This document shows positions 25,183 to 39,710 of a stretch of 64,000 nt of DNA, piece by piece. The position numbers were made by a program, and so were the translations under genes. The DNA is from a virus (taxonomy: Duplodnaviria > Heunggongvirae > Uroviricota > Caudoviricetes): positions 201,756-265,755 of IMG/VR virus record IMGVR_UViG_3300028888_000043; one strand, written 5' to 3'. The notes beneath the pieces were generated by a model. The model was not told where the DNA came from. It made no database searches and was given only the letters and a program-made list of their open reading frames with translations. Numbering within the stretch: the stretch's first letter is position 1; every line of letters begins with the position of its first letter.

Positions 25183-26040
25183 ATGAAGAAAATTGTTTTA
25201 AAGAATTGTGATGTAAAGGAGTTTAATACCCTCATCAAGAGAAGTGCGTCTCTGGACAACTTCATTTTTATCAATCTCCATGGCAGTAAGTTTGAATCAA
25301 CTGCCTATAACAAGAACAAGTCAGCATTGAAGTCCATCACCGCAGACCTCACCAAGTACTGTGAGGCATTTGTCAGTGATTGTGGGGATGAACTTGTCAA
25401 GATTCAGTTTACCAATGCAGGTAAGCTCATCTCTGTCCTTGGTCTTGTAGGTACAGAGGGTGTTGATGTCACCTTCTTCATCGAGGACAATGGTTATGCC
25501 AAGAAAGTTGTTGTTGAGAACACCGAAGTCAATCTCACCGTTCCCGCTGCTGACAAGGATGCTCTGGCATTCCTTGAGATTCCTGACCATGCCCGTCACA
25601 CCATCTTTGAGGATACCACCACCCTGGAGTACAAGGTTGGTATTTCTGAAAATGAGTTCAAGTATCTGTCACAACTCTTTGCCCTTAACAAGGAGTCTTG
25701 CAGGGTCTGCTTCTCCATCAGTAATGATGTTGTGACTGTCTCCGAAATTGAGAGTACTGATGAGAATGTCCGTGAGATTGTCAATGGTTATCTCTCTGAT
25801 GGTAACATTCCTGAATTTGATGCCTTTGACAAGTTGTATTCCAAGAAGCTCACCTATGAGTCTTTTGAGAATTTCAGCGAGGAAGGTTATCTCCGCTGCT
25901 TCAACAAGTCATACTTTGTCTGGATTGATTCCGATGAGCACTATGACATTGAGTTCCACAGCAACAAGATCAAGTTTATCTCTGTTGATGAAAAGGGAAC
26001 AAAGACATATGTGGTACTTACTCCAGTACCGTTTGCATAA
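25183..26040 (+). CDS. Probable DNA sliding clamp (gp45-like)
   Basis: Size, acidic two-repeat alpha/beta pattern, proximity to PolB; no diagnostic motif. Confidence 0.45.
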   Translation: MKKIVLKNCDVKEFNTLIKRSASLDNFIFINLHGSKFESTAYNKNKSALKSITADLTKYCEAFVSDCGDELVKIQFTNAGKLISVLGLVGTEGVDVTFFIEDNGYAKKVVVENTEVNLTVPAADKDALAFLEIPDHARHTIFEDTTTLEYKVGISENEFKYLSQLFALNKESCRVCFSISNDVVTVSEIESTDENVREIVNGYLSDGNIPEFDAFDKLYSKKLTYESFENFSEEGYLRCFNKSYFVWIDSDEHYDIEFHSNKIKFISVDEKGTKTYVVLTPVPFA

Positions 26041-26066
26041 ACAAATTTTTAAGGTTGAACAATGTG

Positions 26067-26097
26067 AAAAGAGAGAGGTCAGAACCTCTCTCTTTTT
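26067..26097. terminator. Bidirectional terminator
   Basis: AAAAGAGAGAGGT-caga-ACCTCTCTCTTTT between convergent genes. Confidence 0.8.
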
Positions 26098-26665
26098 ATT
26101 TATCCTTTACCAATCTCACACAGAGTTTTGCTGTTCTGTCTGTGTCTATTATATCCATTATACTGTAATGATTAGTTAATGGTGTATAAAGGACATCATT
26201 ATCAGTAATGATAAAACAATGTACCGTTGAACCGGCGCTAACTTCTTCAGATGTCCAGCCCCAGTACTCTGTAAGATATGTGACTACTTCATTTCCATGA
26301 GTTACTGATGTATTGTAAATCATACCATTTCTATTGAATGTGAGGCCTTGAGATTTATTTGTAAAATATAAATAATCTTTGTTAGATTTCAGAACACAAT
26401 ATCTATCTAATTCATCAATATCTTTCCTTGTCGGTAATCTCCATCCTGAATTTTGAATCAATTCTTTGATTTCATCAAACAAGAAATGTATTTTTCCGTC
26501 ATATTTTAAATCTGCATCAGCCCAGTAGATAGACCCTCCCATATCAACAGGTTTCAGTTTGTGTAGGTTTTCTATCTCATCTTCCTTCCTGATGGCATCT
26601 CCATTACTTCTCTTGTGAATGTCCGCCCAGACAGATTCAGTTAATATGTTACTTAACTTTTTCAT
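26096..26665 (-). CDS. SVWADIH-tag protein with FISUMP/DUF1566-like cargo
   Basis: Tag at 26638-26579; VDMGGSIYWAD, GWRLPT, YWGWTS, CVRLVKD. Confidence 0.75.
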   Translation of the reverse strand: MKKLSNILTESVWADIHKRSNGDAIRKEDEIENLHKLKPVDMGGSIYWADADLKYDGKIHFLFDEIKELIQNSGWRLPTRKDIDELDRYCVLKSNKDYLYFTNKSQGLTFNRNGMIYNTSVTHGNEVVTYLTEYWGWTSEEVSAGSTVHCFIITDNDVLYTPLTNHYSIMDIIDTDRTAKLCVRLVKDK

Positions 26666-27447
26666 AATTCATCATCGTCTTCATCATCTATATCATCTGT
26701 TCTCTGCGCACCTTCTTTCAGTTTAAGAAAGCATAAATCATCTGCACCAGATGGACTCTCGAATGGATCCATCTCATGGTTTGTAGATTCAACCCATCCA
26801 AGATTTGTATATGCTTCCCTTAAATCATTTTCAAGTTCCTCACGCCAGCCGTCTATGACAGGATAGAATATGGTATTGGCATCCAATATGTCATTTTTGT
26901 CATATTCAACATCATCAGGACAGTAATCTATACCTGCACTTACTTCAAAGCAGATGTTACTTAAGAAGTCAGATGTTGATAAGTCATTGAGGACAAATTC
27001 AGCATACTCCGACATATGGTTGTCAGTATATATCTTCTTTAAGTAATCTTCAAGTATCTTCTGGATTGGGTGATTGTTCATAGTGTCAACATATCCCTTT
27101 TCCATCATTTCCTTGATGTGTTCTTCAGGAGTTTTTTCAATATATTGGCGAAGTACATATATGTCATGGTTGTCCCGGCAGTACTCGCCATGTCCTACAA
27201 ACTCGCAGTTGTTTTCAAGTCTGATGGTGTTATCTGATGATTTGTCAAATCCAAAACCATCCCATTCCATCTCATAATCTTCAACATAATCTTCACCAAG
27301 TGTCATTACTTCCCTGGTGATGTTGTACTTGACACCATCAATAGTTACAAGAATACCAACATCTTCTTTTCTGAATTCATCACCATTACTTCTGCGGTGC
27401 ATGTCAGACCAGACAGATTCTTTCAGTATGTTACTTAATTTCTTCAT
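26662..27447 (-). CDS. SVWADIH-tag protein, acidic unknown cargo
   Basis: Tag at 27420-27361. Confidence 0.7.
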   Translation of the reverse strand: MKKLSNILKESVWSDMHRRSNGDEFRKEDVGILVTIDGVKYNITREVMTLGEDYVEDYEMEWDGFGFDKSSDNTIRLENNCEFVGHGEYCRDNHDIYVLRQYIEKTPEEHIKEMMEKGYVDTMNNHPIQKILEDYLKKIYTDNHMSEYAEFVLNDLSTSDFLSNICFEVSAGIDYCPDDVEYDKNDILDANTIFYPVIDGWREELENDLREAYTNLGWVESTNHEMDPFESPSGADDLCFLKLKEGAQRTDDIDDEDDDEL

Positions 27448-27454
27448 ATCATTA

Positions 27455-28372
27455 TTATTTATCTTTTACAAGGAATACATATAATCTGGTTTGGTGGATA
27501 TTGGAAGAATCAATGTTGAATTTTGACATATTGTCATATCCATAATCATATGCAAGGTTCTGCCATTTCTCATGTCTGTCTTTTGTCCAGGCATGGAATC
27601 CATAGATACTTTCTTCTGTCTTGATTCTCAATGTACCATTAGGGTATTCAAGCCATACATATCCAGTTCCATCATCATCTCTGTACCAACGTTTCCGGAC
27701 ATGTCTGAAATCAACCTGTTTCACCTCTTCAAGTGTAGGAAGCCTCCATCCATTGTTGTTGTAGTTCTCTACATCTTCAAAATAGAACTTATTTTTCCCA
27801 TCAATATCAAGAGCATCCTTGGCCCAGTAAACAGTTGTGTTCTCACCGAAGTCAACATATTCAGGATTGAATTTGTCTTCCTTTCTCTCTTGTTCACCAT
27901 TACTTCTCTTGTGTATGTCAGACCAGACAGATTCTTTTATATCAACTATGTCAATGTTATGAAGGATGAAATTCACAAGGTTCAAGAAAGTGTTGTTTGA
28001 AATTGTACCATCCTTTTCCTTAATCCTGAATGTTGTAGTGTTTATTTTTTCAATGTTGAAATTATCTGCAATCACAACAGTTTCCAATCCAACATTATCA
28101 AGGAGGTCAATGAGGATGTTATATATCTTGTCATTTGAAAAGTTTATTGACACTTCAAGACCCATAACTATTTCAACATTGACATGCTTTGTATTTTGCC
28201 CTTCCATAAAGTTGACATACTCAACCTTATCCTTATAGTTTGAATTGGTATATTCATACAACTGTTCCGGGTCAAAAAGATTGACATCATCTTCCTTTTT
28301 AACCTGTTCTCCATTACTCCTCTTGTGTATATCAGCCCATACAGACTCATCTATTTTACTTAATTTTTTCAT
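27455..28372 (-). CDS. Two-module SVWADIH-tag protein
   Basis: Tags at 28348-28289 and 27934-27875; second module FISUMP-like (GWRLPTLEE). Confidence 0.75.
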   Translation of the reverse strand: MKKLSKIDESVWADIHKRSNGEQVKKEDDVNLFDPEQLYEYTNSNYKDKVEYVNFMEGQNTKHVNVEIVMGLEVSINFSNDKIYNILIDLLDNVGLETVVIADNFNIEKINTTTFRIKEKDGTISNNTFLNLVNFILHNIDIVDIKESVWSDIHKRSNGEQERKEDKFNPEYVDFGENTTVYWAKDALDIDGKNKFYFEDVENYNNNGWRLPTLEEVKQVDFRHVRKRWYRDDDGTGYVWLEYPNGTLRIKTEESIYGFHAWTKDRHEKWQNLAYDYGYDNMSKFNIDSSNIHQTRLYVFLVKDK

Positions 28373-29001
28373 ATGCTTCTCAATATACCATAAGAATCCA
28401 CAAGGTCATCAATGGGTTTTATATTGTTATAATCAAGTTCATTCTCCTTGCAGTACTTCCAGAAAGGACATCTCTCTATGTCAGGATCTTGGGTCTTGTT
28501 CTCAATGAATGCCTTTATCATATCATCCTTTTTGGCATTTCCCTTTCCTGACAGTCTCTTCTTTCCTTCTGTTGGTGAGATGATGACCAGACAGTCCTCC
28601 CCAAAGTACTCCAGGAGTTTGATTCTCAAAAATGAGTTGAACAATACCAGGTCAATGGTGGAGGAAGAGATACTTCCATATGAGAATCCTTCCAATCCTA
28701 TTATGACACTATCATCACCTACAATCTCTACAAGTCTGTTGGAGATTTTGTGTGCGATCATCTCCGCAGCCGCCATCTTGGTCTTCTGTTCCTCCCTGTA
28801 ATCTTTCTTGTCTATATGCCTGGTGTAAGGATTCATCTCCATGAACTTGTTCAGTTCCCTGTGATAGTTGAATGTTTTCATCTTTCCACCTTCCCAGTCC
28901 TTACCATAATCATCAAAGAAGGAGATGAAAGAATACTCTCCATCTTTATAAACACATATCGCCGGGGATATGAGACTGAAATCTATACCTATCTTTATCA
29001 T
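28369..29001 (-). CDS. RuvC-like Holliday junction resolvase/RNase H-fold nuclease
   Basis: IGIDFSL, GLEGFSYGS, GKGNAKKDDM, DDLVDSY. Confidence 0.75.
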   Translation of the reverse strand: MIKIGIDFSLISPAICVYKDGEYSFISFFDDYGKDWEGGKMKTFNYHRELNKFMEMNPYTRHIDKKDYREEQKTKMAAAEMIAHKISNRLVEIVGDDSVIIGLEGFSYGSISSSTIDLVLFNSFLRIKLLEYFGEDCLVIISPTEGKKRLSGKGNAKKDDMIKAFIENKTQDPDIERCPFWKYCKENELDYNNIKPIDDLVDSYGILRSI

Positions 29002-29984
29002 TTTAGCAATATACCTTTTTCACCTTCATATTCAGGATCTTCTCTCAATATATATCCTTTCTTTGAACCGTATAAATTATATTTATATAAATAGAATGTT
29101 TTGTTCTCCAATCTATATCTTATACCCCTCTTTTCTCCCAAAGTCATTTTTGCCCATGTTATTGGAGTATATGATCTACCTCCATTAACATTCAATGAAT
29201 ATATATCACTACCATATGGAGTTATATGTTCTATTTGGAGTCTCCAATAATGTTCATTTTTAAAATATATATCCACCTTTTCAGGCCAATCATCTTTTGT
29301 TATTTTTCTGATTTTGTTTATCACAAATTCATATGCTATATCAAGACCCCTTAACTGTTCTTTTGTATATTTTGGTGCTTGTGGTAATGCTATAATTGCC
29401 CACCAGTGTTCTGGGTTCTGTTCTGGAAGGTCTTCCTTTCTGAACATACTTCCATTACTTCTACGGTGAATATCTGCCCAGACTGATTCATTCATATTAT
29501 CATTTTTAACAAGTATCCTCGTAAAGAAAACATTTGTATTTTCCAAAAGGAAATTTATAATTTCAATGAAGAACTTATTTGATGATTTACCAGTCTTAGG
29601 TGTAATCAAAAAATTATCAGTAAAATTTCTGTGTATGTGATACTTTTTGACATTATATTTTCTCCTGATCTTGTCAAATAATTTATCATCTTTATTCAGG
29701 AAATGATCCCAGATAAGTACTGAATTATCAGTGCAGTCATATTGTATGAACCAAGTTGATTTTGTACCAAGTTCAGTCTCAAACATAGGAACAGTTATAA
29801 CATCATTCAAATCTTTAAAGATATAGAAATCAGTATCTACATTTTTATAGAGGTCTCGAAGATATTCAACAAAACCTTGTGCATCAAGAATATTAGGGTC
29901 ATCTTCTTTTCTTGTCTGCTTTCCATTACTCCTCTTGTGCATATCTGCCCATACAGATTCATCTATTTTACTTAACCTTTTCAT
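28998..29984 (-). CDS. Two-module SVWADIH-tag protein
   Basis: Tags at 29960-29901 and 29489-29430. Confidence 0.75.
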   Translation of the reverse strand: MKRLSKIDESVWADMHKRSNGKQTRKEDDPNILDAQGFVEYLRDLYKNVDTDFYIFKDLNDVITVPMFETELGTKSTWFIQYDCTDNSVLIWDHFLNKDDKLFDKIRRKYNVKKYHIHRNFTDNFLITPKTGKSSNKFFIEIINFLLENTNVFFTRILVKNDNMNESVWADIHRRSNGSMFRKEDLPEQNPEHWWAIIALPQAPKYTKEQLRGLDIAYEFVINKIRKITKDDWPEKVDIYFKNEHYWRLQIEHITPYGSDIYSLNVNGGRSYTPITWAKMTLGEKRGIRYRLENKTFYLYKYNLYGSKKGYILREDPEYEGEKGILLK

Positions 29985-30733
29985 GCATTAAACCAGTCTC
30001 TTGTGTATTCTCTGTATTTCTTGAAGTTGACAAGGTTGTTGAGATTGGCAGGAAGTGCTATGCTACATCCATCATAGAATGTCCAACCAACAAAATCCTC
30101 ATCCCTCAATTCCGGGAAGTCGTCACATATGGAGTCTATGAATTCCTCAATTTCAAAGCCATCATTGTCACAGGCATATGAATATACATCTCCCTCATCA
30201 ATGAGTTTTAACAGATAATCTCCACCATAATCACATTTCCTGTCAGCTGCACCGATGATGATTGATTTTGTAGAAGGTGCATGACTGAAATACTGTCCTA
30301 CTTCCTTTAACTTGGTAGCAATACCTCTGCATAGTGAGATATAATCCTCTTCTGATACCTCATTGGCAATATCCTCTTCATATTCAACAAGGTTATCATA
30401 TGTGTAGAAATCCGCTATAAGTGAATCTCCATGTTTGCTATCATATATGAGATAGTCATATGGTGCTTTCCAATTTGATATATTTACCATCTCATCAGGA
30501 GAGAAATTCATATATCTTGCATTGTCAATGGAAACACCATAAGTGAGGTTGGGATTCTTCTCCAATATTTCTTTTATCCAATAATCATATCTACAGGATG
30601 AGTCCTTGATGATGATATCCACTCCAAGACAAGTGGAGACTTTCTTTCCGTCTTCCTTTCTGATGACATCTCCATTGCTTCTCCTGTGTATGTCTGCCCA
30701 GACGGATTCATCAACTTTACTTAATTTCTTCAT
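29981..30733 (-). CDS. SVWADIH-tag protein, unknown cargo
   Basis: Tag at 30709-30650; first gene behind late promoter 30757-30764. Confidence 0.75.
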   Translation of the reverse strand: MKKLSKVDESVWADIHRRSNGDVIRKEDGKKVSTCLGVDIIIKDSSCRYDYWIKEILEKNPNLTYGVSIDNARYMNFSPDEMVNISNWKAPYDYLIYDSKHGDSLIADFYTYDNLVEYEEDIANEVSEEDYISLCRGIATKLKEVGQYFSHAPSTKSIIIGAADRKCDYGGDYLLKLIDEGDVYSYACDNDGFEIEEFIDSICDDFPELRDEDFVGWTFYDGCSIALPANLNNLVNFKKYREYTRDWFNA

Positions 30734-30756
30734 ATTTTTTAAAATAACAGATATAA

Positions 30757-30781
30757 TATTTATGAGGTTTTGTTATATTTA
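30757..30781. promoter_or_regulatory. Back-to-back late (CATAAATA, -) and early/middle (TTTGTTATATTTA, +) promoters
   Basis: 30757-30764 and 30769-30781. Confidence 0.7.
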
Positions 30782-30819
30782 GATTGTTGAAAGACATTAA
30801 ATCTTAAAGTTATATAAGT

Positions 30820-31614
30820 ATGTTTGAAAAAGTAAATCCAATGCATCCTGATAAGGTTGCTGACCGTATTGCAGGTGCTCTTGTTGACCTTGCCTATGCC
30901 AACCAGGAAAATCCGAAGGTCGCAGTTGAAGTACTTCTTGGTCATGGTAAATGTACCATCATCACAGAGTCCAGTTTCAAGTACACAAAGGAGAATGTCC
31001 TTCCAATCGTTCAGAGAATTGCAGGAGATGAAGTGAAACTTGATCTCAAGGCAGTTCCTCAGGATGAACATCTTGCTCATAATCAGGATGGTCAGGTCCG
31101 TTGTGGTGATAACGGTATCTTCAAGGGTATGCCTCTCACCAATGAGGAAATGGAACTGTCTGAAATCGCCCAGAAGATTTATGAGATGTATCCAACCGAT
31201 GGCAAGTACATCATTGATGATGACACCAATACTCTCATTGTGTGCCAGAGTTGCTGTAACTCTGATGAACTCAAGAATGAACTGGAGTATCTGTATCCTG
31301 ATTACAAGGTGATTGTCAACCCTCTGGGTGACTGGACCGGAGGTACCAATGTGGACACCGGCTGCACCAACAGGAAACTTGGTTCTGATATGGGACGCTC
31401 TGTCACAGGTGGTGGACTTCATGGAAAGGATGTATCAAAGGCGGATGTATCTGTGAATATCTATGCCTACCTCCATTCTCCACAGGAACTGTTTTGCGCC
31501 ATTGGTGATACTGATGTGAATGGTATTCCTTATTCACAGATTGTCCAGGAGGCCAAGGAATATATTGATTCCATTGGTGGGTTTGAGGCACTGGCTGAAT
31601 GGGGACTTATCTAA
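30820..31614 (+). CDS. metK: S-adenosylmethionine synthetase, compact form
   Basis: HPDKVADRI, GDNG, GCTNRKL, GGGLHGKDVSKAD. Confidence 0.9.
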   Translation: MFEKVNPMHPDKVADRIAGALVDLAYANQENPKVAVEVLLGHGKCTIITESSFKYTKENVLPIVQRIAGDEVKLDLKAVPQDEHLAHNQDGQVRCGDNGIFKGMPLTNEEMELSEIAQKIYEMYPTDGKYIIDDDTNTLIVCQSCCNSDELKNELEYLYPDYKVIVNPLGDWTGGTNVDTGCTNRKLGSDMGRSVTGGGLHGKDVSKADVSVNIYAYLHSPQELFCAIGDTDVNGIPYSQIVQEAKEYIDSIGGFEALAEWGLI

Positions 31615-31661
31615 TCCTGTAACTGATTGTCAATGAAGGGGGTGAGATAATTACCTCCTTT

Positions 31662-31674
31662 GTTGTTATATTTA
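31662..31674 (+). promoter_or_regulatory. Early/middle promoter motif GTTGTTATATTTA
   Basis: Ends 4 nt before ATG 31679; follows a hairpin at ~31636-31661. Confidence 0.5.
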
Positions 31675-31678
31675 ATAT

Positions 31679-32740
31679 ATGGAAAATAGAAAGATTTGGC
31701 TTATTGCTGACACACATTTTGGATATAAGGGAGATGATGAGGAGTGGCTTGATGACTATGCTGGTTACTTTGAGGATGTTCTGATTCCACTTATGAAGGA
31801 AGAGGCAGGGAAAGATGATATCCTTGTCCACTGCGGTGATGTGTTTGACAACCGGTCTATCCTTGGACTCAACACCATCAACAGGGTGATTTCCATATTT
31901 GAGAAATTTTCTGAAATATTCAGTGACATCAGGATTACTGTCGGTAACCATGATATGCTGAAAAAGTCAAGTACTTATACCACATCTGTCAATATCCTGA
32001 AATACATCCCACATGTAAAGGTCTATTATACACCACAGGTGGATGTGATAGATGGGAAGACAATCCTGTTCAATCCCTGGATTGAAGACCCGGAAAAAGA
32101 ACATGAGGTTCTTACTGGTGTCAATGTTGATTATGTGTTTGGTCATCTTGAAATCGGAGGTTCATTGATGTCCAACAGGTCAGGTGTGAAGGTGAAACTC
32201 GGAAGCGGGGTCAAGAAAAGTGACTTCAAGAATGCACAGGTCTATGCTGGTCATATCCACATCAAACAGGATGATAAGAACATCCATTATATAGGAAACC
32301 CTTATCACAAGGACAGGGGAGATCGTGAGAATGTGAAGGGTATTACTGTTCTTGACATCAAGACTGGTGAGACAAGGTTCATTGAGAATACCATATCTCC
32401 AAGGTTTATGAAGGAATCCATCTATGATATTATGAATTTAACTGTTGGAGACCTTAAAGAGAGATGGAACAATAACAGGATAGAGTTACATATAAAGAGT
32501 AATGAGATTGTGAAATGTACTTTTGATGCACTTTCATCTGCCCTTAATTATTGTTATAGGAGTTTTAGTGTCATTGGTGATGATGTGGTAATGGAACTTG
32601 ATACATCTGGAACTGTGAGTTTTGATGATGCCAAGAGTAGTGATGACTATATAGTTGATTTCCTTCAAAATCAGGATCTCACAGATGAGATGATGAAGAG
32701 TGTGCAGGATAAGATGAATGAATACAAGGAAAGGTTATGA
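31679..32740 (+). CDS. gp47: Recombination nuclease subunit gp47 (SbcD/Mre11-like)
   Basis: ADTHFG, GDVFD, GNHD, GHLE, GHIH metallophosphoesterase motifs. Confidence 0.88.
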   Translation: MENRKIWLIADTHFGYKGDDEEWLDDYAGYFEDVLIPLMKEEAGKDDILVHCGDVFDNRSILGLNTINRVISIFEKFSEIFSDIRITVGNHDMLKKSSTYTTSVNILKYIPHVKVYYTPQVDVIDGKTILFNPWIEDPEKEHEVLTGVNVDYVFGHLEIGGSLMSNRSGVKVKLGSGVKKSDFKNAQVYAGHIHIKQDDKNIHYIGNPYHKDRGDRENVKGITVLDIKTGETRFIENTISPRFMKESIYDIMNLTVGDLKERWNNNRIELHIKSNEIVKCTFDALSSALNYCYRSFSVIGDDVVMELDTSGTVSFDDAKSSDDYIVDFLQNQDLTDEMMKSVQDKMNEYKERL

Positions 32741-33006
32741 TAAAGTTTCAGGCTGTAAATGATACTATCATATTGATAAAGGACAAGGGTGTGAATGATT
32801 CTCCTCTTATTCTTCCACAACAGCAATCACAGAATATGTATGAGATACCTGAACCATACACAGGAATCATAGACAGTGTTGGAATGGAGAATGAATGGAA
32901 GAAAGGAGACCATATTGCTTTCTGTGACATTGGTGGCGTCTATATGAAAGTAGATGATGTTGAGTATGTGGTGATCACCCCGGAGATGGTTATAGGAAGA
33001 CTGTAA
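32737..33006 (+). CDS. GroES-like co-chaperonin
   Basis: QAVNDTIIL, LILP, GIIDSVG..KKGD, YVVI..EMVIG. Confidence 0.7.
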   Translation: MIKFQAVNDTIILIKDKGVNDSPLILPQQQSQNMYEIPEPYTGIIDSVGMENEWKKGDHIAFCDIGGVYMKVDDVEYVVITPEMVIGRL

Positions 33007-33046
33007 CATTTGGATTTATTGAAAAAAATCATTATATTTGTATTGT

Positions 33047-33190
33047 ATGTATAAGCAAATGTATGGTAAGACATTTCAATCAAAAAGAGAGTTTTTCAAA
33101 TGGCTTGAACAGAATGAAGACAAGATTGATTGGGATGAGGATGTTGAGTTAGGATGGTATTATAAAGAAGAGGAGGAAGACGAAGAATGA
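33047..33190 (+). CDS. 47-aa acidic protein (not in ORF track)
   Basis: MYKQMYGKTFQSKREFFKWLEQNEDKIDWDEDVELGWYYKEEEEDEE; TATATTTG at 33033-33040; ATGA overlap with next gene. Confidence 0.6.
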   Translation: MYKQMYGKTFQSKREFFKWLEQNEDKIDWDEDVELGWYYKEEEEDEE

Positions 33191-34053
33191 ATTTAGATGA
33201 GATATTTGGTAACTCTTTTGAGAAGAAAATGACTGACGAGAATGTCATCAAGGAAAAGGTGAGTTCTTGTAGGTCTCTCATATTGGAGAAGTTCGGGGAC
33301 ATCAAGTTTCTTGAAGAGGGACATCAGTATTTTATTGGTGAGCAGGAATATATACCTGTGAGTCACATCATCAAGGAATATGAACCTGTTGTGGATTGGG
33401 ACCAGAAGGCCACAGATTATGCGGCAAAGTGGCACAAGAAGAAAGAGGATGTACAGAGGGACTGGAAACTGAACAACCTGAAATCAACCATCTCCGGGAC
33501 AAGGACTCACTATTTTGGTGAAAGTTATACCAATCTTCTCATCGGTCATCCTGAACTCATCTGTGAGCAGAACAAACCACAGTACATCAAGGAGTACAAC
33601 ACGATGGTACCCACCTATCCAAAGGAGGAGGCTGTGGTCAAGTTCTACAATGAACTGTCAAGTAACCTTCATCCTGTCGGGGCGGAATTCAAACTATCGA
33701 CCGAGTACATTCAGGATGCCAGACATATTTGCGGTACCTGTGACCTTCTGTTCTACAACAGTGAACTGGATGGTTTTGTCATTGGTGACTGGAAGACTAA
33801 CAAATCCTTGATTAAGGAATATTCCAGGTCTTACGGGATTATGATGGAGGGAGTGATGTCCAAGTACTATGATGAACCGCTTTCGCATTACATCCTTCAG
33901 TTCAACATCTACCAGAGACTGTTGGAATCTATTGGTATCAAAATCATTGACAGGATGCTCTTGTGGTTGAAGGATGATGGGACATATGAACAGATTTGGA
34001 TAGAAAAGATACCAGACCAGGTGATTGATAAAATCCTGAAAGGCGTGAAGTAA
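33187..34053 (+). CDS. PD-(D/E)XK superfamily exonuclease
   Basis: GTRTH, AEFKL, GTCDLL, IGDWKT, LQFNIY. Confidence 0.85.
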   Translation: MNLDEIFGNSFEKKMTDENVIKEKVSSCRSLILEKFGDIKFLEEGHQYFIGEQEYIPVSHIIKEYEPVVDWDQKATDYAAKWHKKKEDVQRDWKLNNLKSTISGTRTHYFGESYTNLLIGHPELICEQNKPQYIKEYNTMVPTYPKEEAVVKFYNELSSNLHPVGAEFKLSTEYIQDARHICGTCDLLFYNSELDGFVIGDWKTNKSLIKEYSRSYGIMMEGVMSKYYDEPLSHYILQFNIYQRLLESIGIKIIDRMLLWLKDDGTYEQIWIEKIPDQVIDKILKGVK

Positions 34054-34065
34054 TTCACGCCTTTT
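34039..34065 (+). terminator. Intrinsic terminator
   Basis: AAAGGCGTGAA-gtaa-TTCACGCCTTTT. Confidence 0.75.
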
Positions 34066-34067
34066 CT

Positions 34068-34075
34068 CATAAATA
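34068..34075 (+). promoter_or_regulatory. Late promoter CATAAATA
   Basis: Upstream of the 1029-aa tag polyprotein. Confidence 0.75.
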
Positions 34076-34091
34076 CCAGTATAAGTGACAC

Positions 34092-37000
34092 TTGTTTATG
34101 AAGACTGTTGAAAGACATAAGAAGACTGATTTCGGTGATGTATGGTATGTAAATGCTATTGATGGAACTTATAGGTTCGCTGTGTACAAGTATGATGATG
34201 ACGATGATACCATTTATCTGTCTAATGTGTTTGTCAAGGAAGACAGTAGGAGACAGGGTTATGGTAATGAGATTCTTGCTGCTGCGGAAGATTATGCCAA
34301 TAGACTCGGTGCAAGTGTCATATGTTTGAAGGTGTTGAGTGGATCCGATGTACACAGGTGGTACAAGAGACATGGTTATGAAGACCTGGAAAAGGATGAG
34401 GAAGAAAGAGGATATATGTGGATGAAGAAGGAGTTGAAGAGAGTGAATGAATCAATTTGGGCAGATATACACCGCAGGAGTACAGGTGAACAGGTCAAGA
34501 AGGAAGATGAGATGACTCAAAAAGACCTTGATGACCTTGATAAGTATATTATGCATTTTGCAAGTGAAGTGGTATATGGTCAGGGTATGGGTGAAGAGGC
34601 TGCTACCCTTGACAATTTCTGTGACCATATAAGACAGGACTATGATGTCAATTCAGACAAGGACAAAATCATTGAATATGTAAAAAAAGTATGGTTTGAT
34701 GAATTGTGTGATGATGTGACCGGTACAATAGAACAGGTACAGAAAGAGTATAATCAGGATATGTATGAATCAGTCTGGGCTGACATACATAAGAGAAGTA
34801 ATGGTGAACAGGTAAGGAAAGAGGATGATGTAAATATTCTTGACCTTGAGGAATTTTATGAATATATTAAAAAACATTATAAGAACAAGGTTGAATATAT
34901 TGACCTGGAATCAATGGGTGGAGGAAATGGAGATGTTCTTGGAGTTGACATTACAGAAAACATTATATTATTCTACAAGCCCAAAAGGGGTCATATCCTA
35001 TTAAGTTGGTCAAAGGTAAAAATACCCATGCCTTTTTTTGATGAATTTGCTGACAGATTTAAGATAGAGAATCCAAATGCAATGAGGAGAATAATAACTG
35101 AAAATGATGGGAGTTGTACAAACAAGACATTCATAGATGTCATTGATTTCTTCCTTAATCATAAGGAAAGTTTGATTAATGAATCTGTCTGGGCTGACAT
35201 ACATAAGAGAAGTAATGGTGATGTTGTAAGAAAGGAAGATGATGTCAATCTTCTTGATAAAGATGGCTTATATGAATATCTGATATCACATTATAAACCA
35301 GTTGAAGGTATAGATATTAAAAGTTATATATTTTGTGGTAATAGTTATATAAATTTGTGTGTATTTACATATCCTACAGAGACAAGATATTCAATACTTT
35401 TAGATATATTGAATTTTAGGGTAAAAGTAAGAACTCCTTATATAAAAAGATGGCCTGCTAATCTTCTTGATATGATATACAAAAAATATAATAGAGAAGA
35501 TATTATTGATAAAAATAGAGACCATATGACTTTTATTACACCAAAAGAGGGTAAAGGAAACAATCAATTTTATATTGATTTTTTGGATATGATATTGAAT
35601 AATGTTGATAAACCATTGTTGAAGAAAGCAATCAATGAATCCATCTGGGTTGACATACATAAGAGAAGTAATGGTGAGGCCATCCGTAAGGAAGATGAGA
35701 ATCTGTCTGATGAAGATTGTGATTTCTTGGATGACTGCCTTATGGAGTTTGCTTCAAGGGTTGTATGGGATGGTGAGAAAGCCAGCCGGGAGAAATTATC
35801 CAATTGTATCAGGAAACAGTCTAATACATATAAGGACATTGATGTAGAAAAGGTCATAAAATATGTTGAAGACCATTGGGGTGAAGTATCTAAAGAACTT
35901 GATAGTCTTATTGCACAGGAAGAAAAAGAAAAGAGAAACGGTATGTATGAATCCGTTTGGAAAGATATGCACCAGAGAAGTAATGGTGACCAGGTAAGGA
36001 AAGAGGATGATTGCTTAATTGATGAAAATGAATTGGATCAGGATTCTTTAATATGCATCAGCAGGTATGCTATACTGTCAGTCTATTATGATAAGTATGA
36101 TGGAAAACCTGAAACTTTCTTAAAGTGTATTGAAAATTGGGATGACAATATATCTATCAGAGCTCAATTATATGATAAAAAGAAAGGTGAATATGTTGAT
36201 CCGGTAAAAGTGATACCTCCATTCATCAAGAAAAATTGGAAAACAGGTAAATCATATGAATCAGATGTCAATAAGAAAGTATCTGATGTGGAGGATGAAA
36301 TTAGAAAGACCGGATTTATAAAGAAACCAGGAGAGAGTATAAATGATACTTTATCAAAATGGTTTGATGATAATAAGGATCTTATTTCGGAAGAATATTG
36401 TGATTCTATTGAAGAATATGCCGAGACATATTATAGTGAAGGTGGTTCAAGGTTTACAGAAGTTGGTGTAGAAGAATGGTGGGATAGTTTGGAATATATT
36501 GATCAGGTAAAAATATATCAGGAACATATGAAAAACACAAATGAGTCTGTCTGGAAAGATATTCATCAGAGAAGTACAGGTGAGCAGGTAAGGAAAGAGG
36601 ATGAATTGCTGAATGACAAGGAAAACCAGATACTCAAACAGACTGCAAAGATGTTCAAGAATGCAGTTCGGGTATCAAAGTATAATGATGATGAAGAAGG
36701 TTATGATTACAGTGACTCCAAGGAGGATTTCATATATTATATTGAACAAAGGAAGGGAGAGATGTTCTGGACAGGTGTGAAGGAAGATGTATATGACAAA
36801 ATCATAGACTATGTGAACAAGAAGTGGACAGATGGTTGCAATGGTATAGATGAATTTATAAGTGAATATATATATGAGTGTGATGGCGTCCCTGGTGGAA
36901 TCACTCCCGCTGATGTTGGAGGTATGGGTGCAATCTCCTTCCCTGGTGCAGATGGTACTCCAGGTTCAGGAGACATCCCTATGCCGACAGGTCATGTCTA

Positions 37001-37181
37001 TCAACAGGTTGCCCCGTTTGGTATTTTCATCAGGGCAAAGAAAGGAAAGAAGAGAAAGAAGAAGTTCAGGAAGGAAGATGAACCTTGTGCTCATTCACCA
37101 AATGCGAAGGTCTATGACTATGTGGATGACTACCGTGAATATGTGGACAGGACATACAACAATATGGATAGAAGAAAGTAG
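34092..37181 (+). CDS. GNAT acetyltransferase domain plus six SVWADIH-tagged modules (putative polyprotein; ATG start probably 34098)
   Basis: GNAT: LSNVFVKEDSRRQGYG..WYKRHGY; tags start at 34449, 34767, 35181, 35637, 35949, 36543. Confidence 0.8.
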   Translation: MFMKTVERHKKTDFGDVWYVNAIDGTYRFAVYKYDDDDDTIYLSNVFVKEDSRRQGYGNEILAAAEDYANRLGASVICLKVLSGSDVHRWYKRHGYEDLEKDEEERGYMWMKKELKRVNESIWADIHRRSTGEQVKKEDEMTQKDLDDLDKYIMHFASEVVYGQGMGEEAATLDNFCDHIRQDYDVNSDKDKIIEYVKKVWFDELCDDVTGTIEQVQKEYNQDMYESVWADIHKRSNGEQVRKEDDVNILDLEEFYEYIKKHYKNKVEYIDLESMGGGNGDVLGVDITENIILFYKPKRGHILLSWSKVKIPMPFFDEFADRFKIENPNAMRRIITENDGSCTNKTFIDVIDFFLNHKESLINESVWADIHKRSNGDVVRKEDDVNLLDKDGLYEYLISHYKPVEGIDIKSYIFCGNSYINLCVFTYPTETRYSILLDILNFRVKVRTPYIKRWPANLLDMIYKKYNREDIIDKNRDHMTFITPKEGKGNNQFYIDFLDMILNNVDKPLLKKAINESIWVDIHKRSNGEAIRKEDENLSDEDCDFLDDCLMEFASRVVWDGEKASREKLSNCIRKQSNTYKDIDVEKVIKYVEDHWGEVSKELDSLIAQEEKEKRNGMYESVWKDMHQRSNGDQVRKEDDCLIDENELDQDSLICISRYAILSVYYDKYDGKPETFLKCIENWDDNISIRAQLYDKKKGEYVDPVKVIPPFIKKNWKTGKSYESDVNKKVSDVEDEIRKTGFIKKPGESINDTLSKWFDDNKDLISEEYCDSIEEYAETYYSEGGSRFTEVGVEEWWDSLEYIDQVKIYQEHMKNTNESVWKDIHQRSTGEQVRKEDELLNDKENQILKQTAKMFKNAVRVSKYNDDEEGYDYSDSKEDFIYYIEQRKGEMFWTGVKEDVYDKIIDYVNKKWTDGCNGIDEFISEYIYECDGVPGGITPADVGGMGAISFPGADGTPGSGDIPMPTGHVYQQVAPFGIFIRAKKGKKRKKKFRKEDEPCAHSPNAKVYDYVDDYREYVDRTYNNMDRRK
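34449..36602 (+). repeat. Six dispersed 60-bp coding repeats (ESVWADIHKRSNGEQVRKED)
   Basis: Copies 2 and 3 share an identical 35 nt (34773-34807 = 35187-35221). Confidence 0.95.
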
Positions 37182-37202
37182 GATTAACACTCCTACTTTT
37201 TT
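37175..37202 (+). terminator. Intrinsic terminator
   Basis: AAAGTAGGA-ttaacac-TCCTACTTT followed by T-run. Confidence 0.7.
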
Positions 37203-37210
37203 CATAAATA
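37203..37210 (+). promoter_or_regulatory. Late promoter CATAAATA
   Basis: 26 nt upstream of rimK-like start. Confidence 0.75.
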
Positions 37211-37236
37211 CTATATTAAAATACAGATAGTATATT

Positions 37237-39000
37237 ATGAATTATAAAAGTAAAGGATATGCCCCTCTCAATGAGAGTAAAAAGGCAAAGAATATTCAGG
37301 TTGTTTTCCTGTCCAGTAGGGCAGAAAAGACAACAAAAAGTTCTAATTCAATGTTCTTCTTTGAGGATGCTGCAAAGAAGGCCGGATTGAAGATGATTAC
37401 AATCGACCCTTCTTCATCAGTCATTACAAAGAGTTCGGAAGAAGTTTACAGTGTTGTTGAGAATGGCGAGAACAAGAAAACATATGAGTTGAGTCCAACC
37501 AACACCATCATTGTTCCACGTCGTACTGTTTTAAAGAACATTGAGTCCAGGGATTTCCTCACAGAACTCCAGAATGATGGATTCTTTGTGTTGAATACAT
37601 TGGATGCCATTGACAACTGTGAGGATAAGTTCATCACCTATAAGAAACTGAAAGCTGCCGGCGTACCTACTCCGAGAACTGCTGTTGTGACCAGTTCTTC
37701 TATGAACAAGTTGGATGATAAGATCAATTCTGTCGGAGGTAATTTCCCTCTCATCATCAAGATTACAAAGGGAACACAGGGTATCGGTGTTGCACAGGTG
37801 GATTCCAAGATTTCCCTTAAATCTGTTCTCCAGGCTTTCTTTGCTATGACTCCGAAGGCGGATATCCTTCTTCAGGAGAAAATCAACTCTGATTATGATT
37901 TGAGAATCCATGTTCTCTACAAGGGATTTGAAAGGATGACTCCTGGTATTGAGAACTTTGAGATTATCGGTTGTATGAAGAGAAACCAGTTGGAGGGAGA
38001 CTTCCGTTCCAACTATTCCCTTGGATCAACCGCAGAGAAGGGTACTCTCACATCAGAACAGGAGAAGATTGCCAAGCAGGCATGCAAGGCAACAGGTTGC
38101 CGCTGGGCAGGTGTTGATATGATTATGGATTCCAGGACCAAGCAGTCTTATGTCATTGAGGTGAACTCATCTCCTGGTACCAAGGGTATCACAACCGCAG
38201 CTGGTGATGATGTGGTCGGTACATTGATGGATATGTTCAAGGACTTCAAGTACACCAAGTATGATTCTGACCAGATTGGCAGATATGAGACTGTCACATT
38301 GAAGGACCTCAATGATGGTGTTGATGCACCTATGAAGTTTGATGACAACAAGACTTTCACTGAGTTGCAGTGCAGTTCTGTCAATGCCAAGGATGATGAT
38401 GTCACTTTTGTGTTCAATGGTGTCACCTATACTCTTGAACTGTCAGGTATGAGGAAGGGAGACCCTATGGTTGAATTGAACATCAGGTTCAATGGTACTG
38501 TTTATAAGAATGAATTGGTTGTCTTGAAGACTGTCAATGACAATATCAACAAGAATATTGCAGTTGGTGGTAGCAAGCTCCTTCACAGGATTTCAGATAA
38601 GGCTGTTGTGGTTGAGAACTCATTTATCCTTACTGACAATACTACTGATTTTGAAGTACCTGTTGAGAAAGTTGAAGAGAGTGTTTCTCTCAATGAAAGC
38701 AAGGCGGTTGCCCTTTATGAGGACATCAGGCTTGGAGGATTGAAGAAACTCATCACCAGATACATCCAGGGCAGGCAGAATGAATATGAGAATGACAACT
38801 GGAAGATTTCAGGTCTCAATGAGGATAGGGATACCTGGACATTGAGTTATAATGGTGTCGATGTTGTTGACTGCAAGGAGAACTATGCATACTTTATCAA
38901 TGACTCTCTCTCTTATGAGGATGCCTGTAAGGTGGCAGGTGTTGTCGAGGCATTCTATGGACATGAGGTTGATTTGTCCAAGTATAAAAATGTAGAATAA
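37237..39000 (+). CDS. rimK: RimK-family ATP-grasp ligase fused to degenerate RimK-associated protease domain
   Basis: DKFITY..GVPTPRT, PLIIK..GTQGIGV, LLQEKI, DLRIHV, DFRSNYSLG, AGVD, IEVNSSPG; then IGRYE..MKFDD lacking DTG. Confidence 0.85.
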   Translation: MNYKSKGYAPLNESKKAKNIQVVFLSSRAEKTTKSSNSMFFFEDAAKKAGLKMITIDPSSSVITKSSEEVYSVVENGENKKTYELSPTNTIIVPRRTVLKNIESRDFLTELQNDGFFVLNTLDAIDNCEDKFITYKKLKAAGVPTPRTAVVTSSSMNKLDDKINSVGGNFPLIIKITKGTQGIGVAQVDSKISLKSVLQAFFAMTPKADILLQEKINSDYDLRIHVLYKGFERMTPGIENFEIIGCMKRNQLEGDFRSNYSLGSTAEKGTLTSEQEKIAKQACKATGCRWAGVDMIMDSRTKQSYVIEVNSSPGTKGITTAAGDDVVGTLMDMFKDFKYTKYDSDQIGRYETVTLKDLNDGVDAPMKFDDNKTFTELQCSSVNAKDDDVTFVFNGVTYTLELSGMRKGDPMVELNIRFNGTVYKNELVVLKTVNDNINKNIAVGGSKLLHRISDKAVVVENSFILTDNTTDFEVPVEKVEESVSLNESKAVALYEDIRLGGLKKLITRYIQGRQNEYENDNWKISGLNEDRDTWTLSYNGVDVVDCKENYAYFINDSLSYEDACKVAGVVEAFYGHEVDLSKYKNVE

Positions 39001-39167: not shown

Positions 39168-39710
39168 ATGTTAAAGAAATTTGAAGAATATATAAGAGAC
39201 AAGGGAATGAAGTCAGAGGCTTTCATTCCTGAAACTCCTGTACATTCATCAACCAAGGAAACACATGACGGAAAGGAAGTCTCTGGATTCAAGGAGGTTA
39301 TTGAAGTTGAAGGACTTGGAAAAATGAAAGCAAAACTTGATACAGGAAACACTGCCTATAATGCCATCATTGTCCAGGACTGTAAAGAAAAGGATGGAAA
39401 GGTTTCTTTTGAGTTCAATGGTGAAGAGAAGGAGTTTGATATTGTGAAGCATATCAAAATTTGGCATCATGGAAAGGCAACTGAAAGACCTGTGATAAAG
39501 GTCAACCTGAAATTCAATGGAAAGGAATATAAGGATGAACTTGTTGACTTGAAGATTTCAGACCTTACCGGTTCAAAGAATTACAGATCCAGGATGCTTC
39601 TTTGTAAAGATTTTATGTCCAGGGCCAAGATTGTGGTTGACCCAAGTAAGGAATTCAAACTGACTGACAAGAAAGAAATTAAGAAAAAGAAGAAAAAGAG
39701 TGAGAGTTAA
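39168..39710 (+). CDS. RimK-associated retropepsin-like protease (RimB-like)
   Basis: KAKLDTGN, ERPVI, MLLCKDFM. Confidence 0.8.
   Translation: MLKKFEEYIRDKGMKSEAFIPETPVHSSTKETHDGKEVSGFKEVIEVEGLGKMKAKLDTGNTAYNAIIVQDCKEKDGKVSFEFNGEEKEFDIVKHIKIWHHGKATERPVIKVNLKFNGKEYKDELVDLKISDLTGSKNYRSRMLLCKDFMSRAKIVVDPSKEFKLTDKKEIKKKKKKSES

Follow-up and report, generated by a model that had tools for sequence, protein, structure and literature searches.

A 20-residue tag placed to become a free N-terminus in late proteins of a T4-related jumbo phage: candidate cargo of the phage head

Why should one short peptide stand, well conserved, in front of many protein modules that show so little likeness to one another? 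The question is raised by a 64,000-nucleotide stretch of DNA (the window; bases 201,756-265,755 of the 411,604-bp IMG/VR virus record IMGVR_UViG_3300028888_000043), which belongs to a T4-related phage and carries in two loci, one on either strand, repeated copies of a 20-residue element, here called the tag. The initial annotation took these loci for a candidate system of effectors delivered with the virion. What is new here is the placement of the element: as far as the sequences tell, the tag always stands where its first residue, Ser, can become residue 1 of a protein, and it does so in two gene classes, directly after the initiator Met in one and after a predicted cut site in the other. 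We would give an even chance to the reading that this is T4-style head cargo on a larger scale, with a cleavable leader or site in front of a retained tag that needs a free N-terminus.

A six-frame scan of the window with a 13-residue pattern of the tag, allowing up to three substitutions, returns the same 13 copies as first annotated and no spurious match: seven on the minus strand (starting at 26638, 27420, 27934, 28348, 29489, 29960 and 30709) and six on the plus strand (34449, 34767, 35181, 35637, 35949 and 36543). The surrounding residues are also as described: five minus-strand genes open with MK(K/R)LS(K/N)...E followed by the tag, and the internal copies follow RVNE, DMYE, LINE, AINE, GMYE, NTNE, DIKE or NMNE. 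The two loci are thus real, but their scale was underestimated, since the motif is found genome-wide, with 43 copies in 30 genes. Its consensus is S-(V/I)-W-x-D-(I/M)-x-x-R-(S/G)-x-G-x-x-x-(R/K)-K-E-D, in which S1, W3, D5, R9, G12, R/K16, E18 and D19 form a core that is invariant across the clade; a role of the tag's His as a metal ligand is ruled out, its position being Q, H, or R across the clade. Fourteen of the 20 tag columns are invariant, against about 30% identity in the payload that follows. Among the 43 genomic copies, Ser1 is encoded by AGY in 20 and by TCN in 23, and 50% of identical tag residues are written with different codons; at the nucleotide level the copies average 66% identity, and their longest exact run has a median of 9 nt, values that rule out a DNA repeat or recombination site behind the conservation. 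This comparison bears out the earlier claim, made from synonymous codons, of selection on the peptide: judged by its codons, the conservation of the tag is a constraint at the peptide level.

The tag is also, as supposed, not part of a described family. No Pfam, NCBIfam or PHROG family covers it in the 25 tagged proteins of the genome, the sole overlap being that of a single copy with PHROG 17132 (E 7.7e-4). Searched against 1.84 billion representative proteins, a profile of the 43 copies matches 414 clusters (E <= 1e-3), in which a single protein may carry as many as seven tags, and related tagged loci bear record names of rumen-type and human-gut metagenomes. Among 50,697 genomes of deposited phages, neither megablast of window 26000-38000 nor tblastn with a tagged protein gives a match. 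A scan of IMG/VR with the tag alignment yields pattern matches of which none is confirmed outside the present record, and a degenerate DNA pattern of the tag core yields five matches in the same database, all due to chance once translated. In 185,579 prokaryote species, one genome each, 31 pattern matches occur and none is confirmed, so that no host-encoded or prophage copy of the tag is found; a query of the ESM Atlas with the tag joined to its commonest payload (module A, described below) gives no usable match.

The two gene classes differ in size, position and surroundings. Class I comprises 14 small genes (55-173 aa), which start M-S(V/I)W without a leader, carry one tag each, and lie at about 29 kb, 55-67 kb and 286 kb of the genome. 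Class II comprises 17 genes in which the first tag is preceded either by a leader, of the form MK(K/R)LS..E or MIPDF(K/R)TY..E, or by a long untagged N-terminal part; eight of them hold two to six tags, and multi-tag genes are confined to late units. The octamer CATAAATA occurs 101 times in the genome, against 17-37 times for the other NATAAATA variants, and 78 of its copies lie at most 80 nt upstream of a called gene, including those for sheath, portal, protease-scaffold and baseplate wedge. All 17 class II genes follow it at a distance of 0-5 co-directional genes (at most 4.1 kb), and none of the 14 class I genes does; by this placement, class II would be expressed late, together with the head genes. 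Both window loci stand behind this late-type promoter, as initially annotated: that of the minus-strand operon lies at 30757..30764, 23 nt before the ATG at 30733, and that of the plus-strand gene at 34068..34075, 22 nt before the ATG at 34098. A second promoter-like motif, TTTTGTTATATTTA, occurs throughout the genome, often directly after a hairpin (in the window upstream of 21409, 30820, 31679 and 39761); it is probably an early/middle promoter, because it precedes replication and recombination genes (DNA polymerase, RecA, Mre11) as well as that for S-adenosylmethionine synthetase. This motif is found 1.8-4 kb upstream of eight class I genes, with all genes in between co-directional, and the neighbors of class I are non-structural, among them a sigma factor, an FKBP isomerase and an RlaP-type nucleotidyltransferase.

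A protease that could act in front of the tag is encoded by the phage itself. The window carries genes for tail sheath and baseplate wedge and for a family-B DNA polymerase of distant likeness to those of T4-type phages; beyond its edge lie genes for a T4-type portal, a 659-aa protease-scaffold fusion and a Gp23-family capsid protein. The protease-scaffold gene (L034:4592-6571) adjoins the portal and Gp23-type capsid genes; it matches PF03420 (Peptidase_S77, gp21-type) at 37.3 bits, above the cut-off, and joins the protease to a scaffold, a long coiled coil in which ...YLAE.MN... units recur. In T4, gp21 cleaves after L/I-x-E (PMC9026906). Before non-initial tags, the residue in P1 is Glu in 29 of 29 cases here, in 352 of 353 in the 150 best relatives' proteins, and in 251 of 252 in 59 related loci; in the same 150 proteins, P3 is I, L, V, M, or T in 345 of 353, with Asn as the usual residue in P2 and Ser in P1'. 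Within the N-terminal 53 residues of the phage's own capsid protein stand ILNE|A, FITE|S and ALNE|S, of which the last lies closest to the counterpart of the T4 gp23 maturation site and is retained in a relative. The protease domain ends C-terminally in LKRVNE|S, which is invariant in 20 relatives; the same LKRVNE|S of the protease/scaffold junction recurs before the first tag of the plus-strand gene, a polyprotein. It is a reasonable reading that cleavage exposes S(V/I)W as a new N-terminus, given the gp21-type protease, the rule of Glu in P1 and a hydrophobic residue in P3, and the sites of like kind in the capsid protein and between protease and scaffold. Of the original proposal, the protease family, the late genes and the hydrophobic-x-E site stand; the cut itself is argued from consensus. 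In class I, this Glu is exchanged for Met, and as these are just the genes in which no cut is needed, a requirement for Ser as residue 1 is the simplest explanation.

Sites of this kind extend beyond the tagged genes. Outside tags, [ILVM]NE[SA] is observed 35 times, against 13.7 +/- 4.3 in shuffles, and these untagged sites concentrate in late genes by the head module, often 7-25 residues from the start; the pattern suggests that the head protease may process many untagged enzymes too. A second cut within the tag, after RKE|D, was considered and rejected, as it would place Arg in P3, unlike all predicted sites.

The leaders occur in three forms, the MIPDFKTYIGE type, the MKKLSKI(D/T)E type and MKKLSE, all of which end in hydrophobic-x-Glu. 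MIPDFKTYIGE has aromatic residues in positions -6 and -3, Ile in -2 and Glu in 0, a spacing that is also that of the T4 capsid-targeting sequence (CTS), MKTYQEFIAE (PMC8442874). Within the T4 sequence, residues 4 and 7 act in targeting, and 8 and 10 in processing. The T4 residue pattern is seen in leaders of the MIPDFKTYIGE, MGTIKSFKKFIEE and MSKFYEHITE types; it is not evident in MKKLSE and MKKLSKIDE. Of 235 late-unit genes, 17 have a leader with this pattern, 11 of these being untagged; of 265 other genes, 4 do. Homologous proteins with a single module A carry any of the three leader types before the same tag. Because T4-pattern leaders thus occur on untagged late genes, and three leader types before one tag, the leader is by this comparison an independent, interchangeable unit and the tag a separate element. 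Packaging had been among the functions first offered for the tag, and this part of the proposal fares poorly: the tag is most likely not the packaging signal, because it also heads the 14 leaderless M-S(V/I)W genes outside late units, and a separate T4-like leader is present on untagged late genes as well.

The payloads behind the tag are diverse. Of 32 payload clusters in the genome, 28 are singletons; module A is present in 10 copies. In the 25 tagged proteins, Pfam recognizes a GNAT domain only; in 60 tagged proteins of relatives, it finds DUF285 (6), GNAT (4), BspA-type leucine-rich repeats (LRR; 3) and Lcl_C (PF07603; 3). Since the recognizable payloads are mostly of binder type, the label 'effector' for the tagged proteins is a guess. 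AlphaFold2 (AF2) models were made of two proteins, a 305-aa two-module protein (gene 3 of the minus-strand operon) and a 172-aa single-module protein. In both, module A is an alpha+beta domain with a predicted local distance difference test score (pLDDT) above 90; leader and tag score 35-53 (the gene 3 tags below 50) and form a short helix from S1 to S10 and then a loop, unpacked on either payload. The initial annotation had named, as a point that would count against it, that the tag might be an integral part of one payload fold; both models leave it unpacked, and as modelled the tag is a free short helix outside that fold. Foldseek gives no match against the PDB at E <= 0.001. With VIA-align, the best match of module A is the C-terminal double-wing domain of T4 MotA (Z 6.5, root-mean-square deviation 3.0 over 95 residues), which is not decisive, and the C-terminal domain of gene 3 resembles C-type-lectin/FGE-like folds (Mtd, TvpA and FGE-like chains) with Z 5.0-5.8; as these matches are middling, the payload folds are left unassigned. 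Modules joined in a single protein in one phage have orthologs that are encoded separately, each with a leader, in another, which fits a post-translational separation of modules.

In the window, the minus-strand operon contains the five leader-bearing genes. Gene 1 (29981..30733, 250 aa) has the leader MKKLSKVDE, the tag at 30650-30709 and an unassigned payload, with no family in Pfam, PHROG or NCBIfam. Gene 2 (28998..29984, 328 aa) consists of leader, tag (29901-29960), module A, the site NMNE|S, a second tag (29430-29489) and an unassigned payload. Gene 3 (27455..28372, 305 aa) consists of leader, tag (28289-28348), module A, the site DIKE|S, a second tag (27875-27934) and a lectin-like domain. 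Gene 4 (26662..27447, 261 aa) places an acidic payload behind the leader MKKLSNILKE and the tag at 27361-27420, and gene 5 (26096..26665, 189 aa) a lectin-like payload, a paralog of gene 3's second module, behind MKKLSNILTE and the tag at 26579-26638; neither lectin-like payload has a Pfam match. A RuvC-like Holliday junction resolvase (28369..29001, minus strand; PHROG 159, E 1.5e-13) is encoded inside this tagged late operon without leader or tag.

The plus-strand gene (34098..37181) encodes a polyprotein of 1027 aa from its ATG, in which an untagged GNAT domain is followed by six units of tag and module (tags of 60 nt each) and a conserved C-terminal tail; the relatives P0020 and P0039 have the same architecture. 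The GNAT acetyltransferase domain (34098..34448; Pfam Acetyltransf_7, E 1.4e-8) ends in LKRVNE|S, and its best NCBIfam match is RimI, weak and below cut-off. The tail (36879..37181) follows YIYE|C and comprises a copy of a capsid segment (36912-37013), a poly-Lys run and an invariant end; a stretch of 40 residues is 50% identical to residues 65-104 of the phage's own capsid protein (BLASTP, E 2e-6), which is the only other match of this segment in the genome. Among the 150 best relatives' proteins, 25 end in the same tail, in each case behind hydrophobic-x-E|C; the tail may be a C-terminal head-association module.

A capsid-like segment is also found in class I. In a 65-aa M-S gene (genome 29257-29454; L009:758-952), residues 32-64 match capsid residues 98-130 (39% identity, E 2e-6), and the Pfam Gp23 model matches this gene as well. 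The homologous stretch of T4 gp23 is the Gol region, which is sensed by the Lit defence, so that the small protein could be a decoy or an assembly regulator.

Downstream of the polyprotein gene, window 37237-39000 encodes a RimK-family glutamate ligase, above the subfamily cut-off and with PLNE|S at its residues 10-13, and window 39168-39710 a RimB-like retropepsin, a weak match. The order of GNAT-polyprotein, RimK-family ligase and RimB-like gene is kept in one relative (L028), and the RimI-like, RimK-family and RimB-like set is possibly a kit that modifies ribosomes or protein termini. Precursors of graspetide-type ribosomally synthesized and post-translationally modified peptides, short chains with repeated cores that a dedicated ATP-grasp ligase cross-links, came into question because the RimK-family neighbor is of the ATP-grasp kind; they were set aside as an explanation of the tag, as the tags of eight loci head folded domains 35-250 residues long and just one of these loci has the ligase. 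From the ligase gene onward (genome 238-274 kb; window 37237-64000 and beyond), [ILVM]NE[SA] sites cluster close to the start of non-structural late proteins, including RimK, a 1190-aa protein and a MoxR-type ATPase.

At E <= 1e-10, upwards of 5,600 relatives of the protease-scaffold protein are found, many of them about 80% identical and on contigs of 360-420 kb, so that the phage belongs to an abundant uncultured clade. An untagged lectin-like gene with DUF1566-type motifs lies between the scaffold and capsid genes (L034:7140-7928) and is missing there in one relative (L092); its product may be a capsid decoration.

These considerations suggest how the late tagged genes could work as head-internal cargo with a two-part N-terminal address. 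The first part would be the short leader, which targets the protein to the assembling head and offers the cut site for the gp21-family prohead protease; in multi-module proteins, the end of the preceding module would stand in for the leader. The second would be the 20-residue tag, which is retained and forms the mature N-terminus of each released module; in class I, removal of the initiator Met would expose the same Ser. The tag would then act as a shared docking helix that works only at an N-terminus and sends many payloads to one partner, which probably acts in the infected cell, where payloads would arrive pre-made from the injected head or through non-late expression. A further-reaching form of this proposal, possible though unlikely, has a free-N-terminus docking motif, laid bare by the head protease in injected cargo and by loss of Met in proteins made in the cell, that would bring more than 40 payloads per genome to a single hub; an abundant clade of gut and rumen phages of roughly 400 kb would then use one modular effector library with two delivery routes, whose new termini the RimI-like, RimK-family and RimB-like enzymes might modify.

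Several observations weigh against the head-cargo reading. Cleavage, packaging and injection are all inferred from consensus, and the invariant Ser could merely cap a helix. Five of 13 scored class I genes have neither CATAAATA nor TTTTGTTATATTTA nearby, and early/middle timing follows from promoter motifs alone. Lectin-like, DUF285 and BspA-type LRR payloads are typical of surface adhesins and not of known injected phage proteins. In MKKLSE and MKKLSKIDE the leader is short and without the T4 aromatic pattern, and the polyprotein begins with no leader of any kind, so that tag or tail may contribute to head targeting.

This last point leads to the alternative that the tag is itself a capsid-targeting element, which binds the scaffold or core, with leaders as cleavable caps and the M-S proteins packaged too. 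It would account for tags in the leaderless polyprotein, for leaders such as MKKLSE that are too short for a 10-residue T4 signal, and for a tag far better conserved than any leader; we give it a modest chance, since M-S genes lie outside late units, 11 untagged late genes have T4-pattern leaders, and a retained targeting peptide needs no fixed place after Met or a protease-type site. Somewhat less probable is that the tagged proteins are external decorations or adhesins of the virion, anchored by the tag on capsid or fibres, with the multi-tag proteins left uncut. The adhesin-like payloads (lectin/FGE-like folds, Lcl_C, DUF285, BspA-type LRR), the untagged lectin-like gene between scaffold and capsid genes, and the capsid segment copied in the polyprotein tail all speak for such decoration, but it leaves unexplained the hydrophobic-x-E before non-initial tags and its replacement by Met in non-late genes, as well as the T4-type leaders, the GNAT domain and the 14 small genes outside late units.

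The tag might also have no addressing role, being the best-conserved N-terminal element of an expanding module A family that is passively shuffled. Module A is the commonest payload, and most relatives show a spacing of about 150 residues between tags, and some small M-S proteins resemble its first helix; but the tag is much better conserved than the module domain, heads many payloads without detectable mutual similarity, as the preponderance of singleton clusters shows, and in the AF2 models is packed neither on module A nor on the lectin-like domain, all of which makes shuffling improbable. Least probable of all is that the tag marks a site for modifying enzymes, the new Ser N-terminus being the substrate of the RimI-like GNAT and the new C-terminal Glu that of the RimK-family ligase with its RimB-like protease. 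Cleavage would produce just such Ser N-termini and Glu C-termini, RimK is known to lengthen the C-terminal Glu tail on RpsF (PMC7343187), and the gene order is conserved in a relative; the GNAT and RimB matches, however, are weak, these neighbors are found at one of eight tag loci, and the enzymes could equally act on the host ribosome.

Should the head-cargo reading hold, the tagged proteins would be by far the largest predicted set of head-packaged proteins on the T4 principle, in jumbo phages that are abundant in gut and rumen, and their address would split cleanly into two parts. With the leader and its cut site, foreign proteins could be brought into such heads, a use to which the CTS is put in T4. 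As for the retained tag, it would indicate one hub, of host or phage, on which dozens of payloads converge; its identity would inform on the first minutes of infection in this clade and would help explain a large unannotated block of genes, the 414 protein clusters without a family.

How does such a system compare with those already described? The IAP-binding motifs of Smac/DIABLO become active once processing exposes a new N-terminus; they share this logic of exposure with the proposed tag, by analogy only and with no relation in sequence or evolution. Similar in organization are the polyvalent proteins of phages and conjugative elements, described by Iyer et al. in 2017 and reportedly rich in enzymatic domains, with peptidases of their own. 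Like these, the multi-tag proteins are large chains of swappable modules that would be delivered together with DNA and processed into parts; unlike them, the modules here are small, mostly unassigned or binder-like, separated by one fixed peptide, and would depend on the head protease.

In the phiKZ-like giant phages (phiKZ, 201phi2-1, SPN3US), a gp21-related protease cleaves numerous paralogous proteins of the head interior after Glu, at several places in each (PMC9026906). The likeness to these processed head and ejection proteins lies in gp21-type cuts after Glu, several per polypeptide, which are predicted here; the sites differ, being S/A-x-E there and hydrophobic-x-E here, no shared retained N-terminal tag is known to be described for the phiKZ-like proteins, and they are not related in sequence to the present ones, which have no match in deposited phage genomes. 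The proposed cargo also parallels the internal T4 proteins IPI-III and Alt, whose CTS is removed by the prohead protease gp21: in both systems a gp21-family protease meets products of late genes with a short leader that ends in hydrophobic-x-Glu, diverse payloads stand behind a conserved address, and one of the leader types found here keeps the aromatic/Ile/Glu spacing of the T4 sequence. In T4 the leader alone is conserved, whereas here a second, invariant element of 20 residues follows the cut site and would be retained; this element also heads leaderless genes outside late units, modules are strung together with up to seven tags per protein, and some 30 late modules per genome take the place of the handful in T4.

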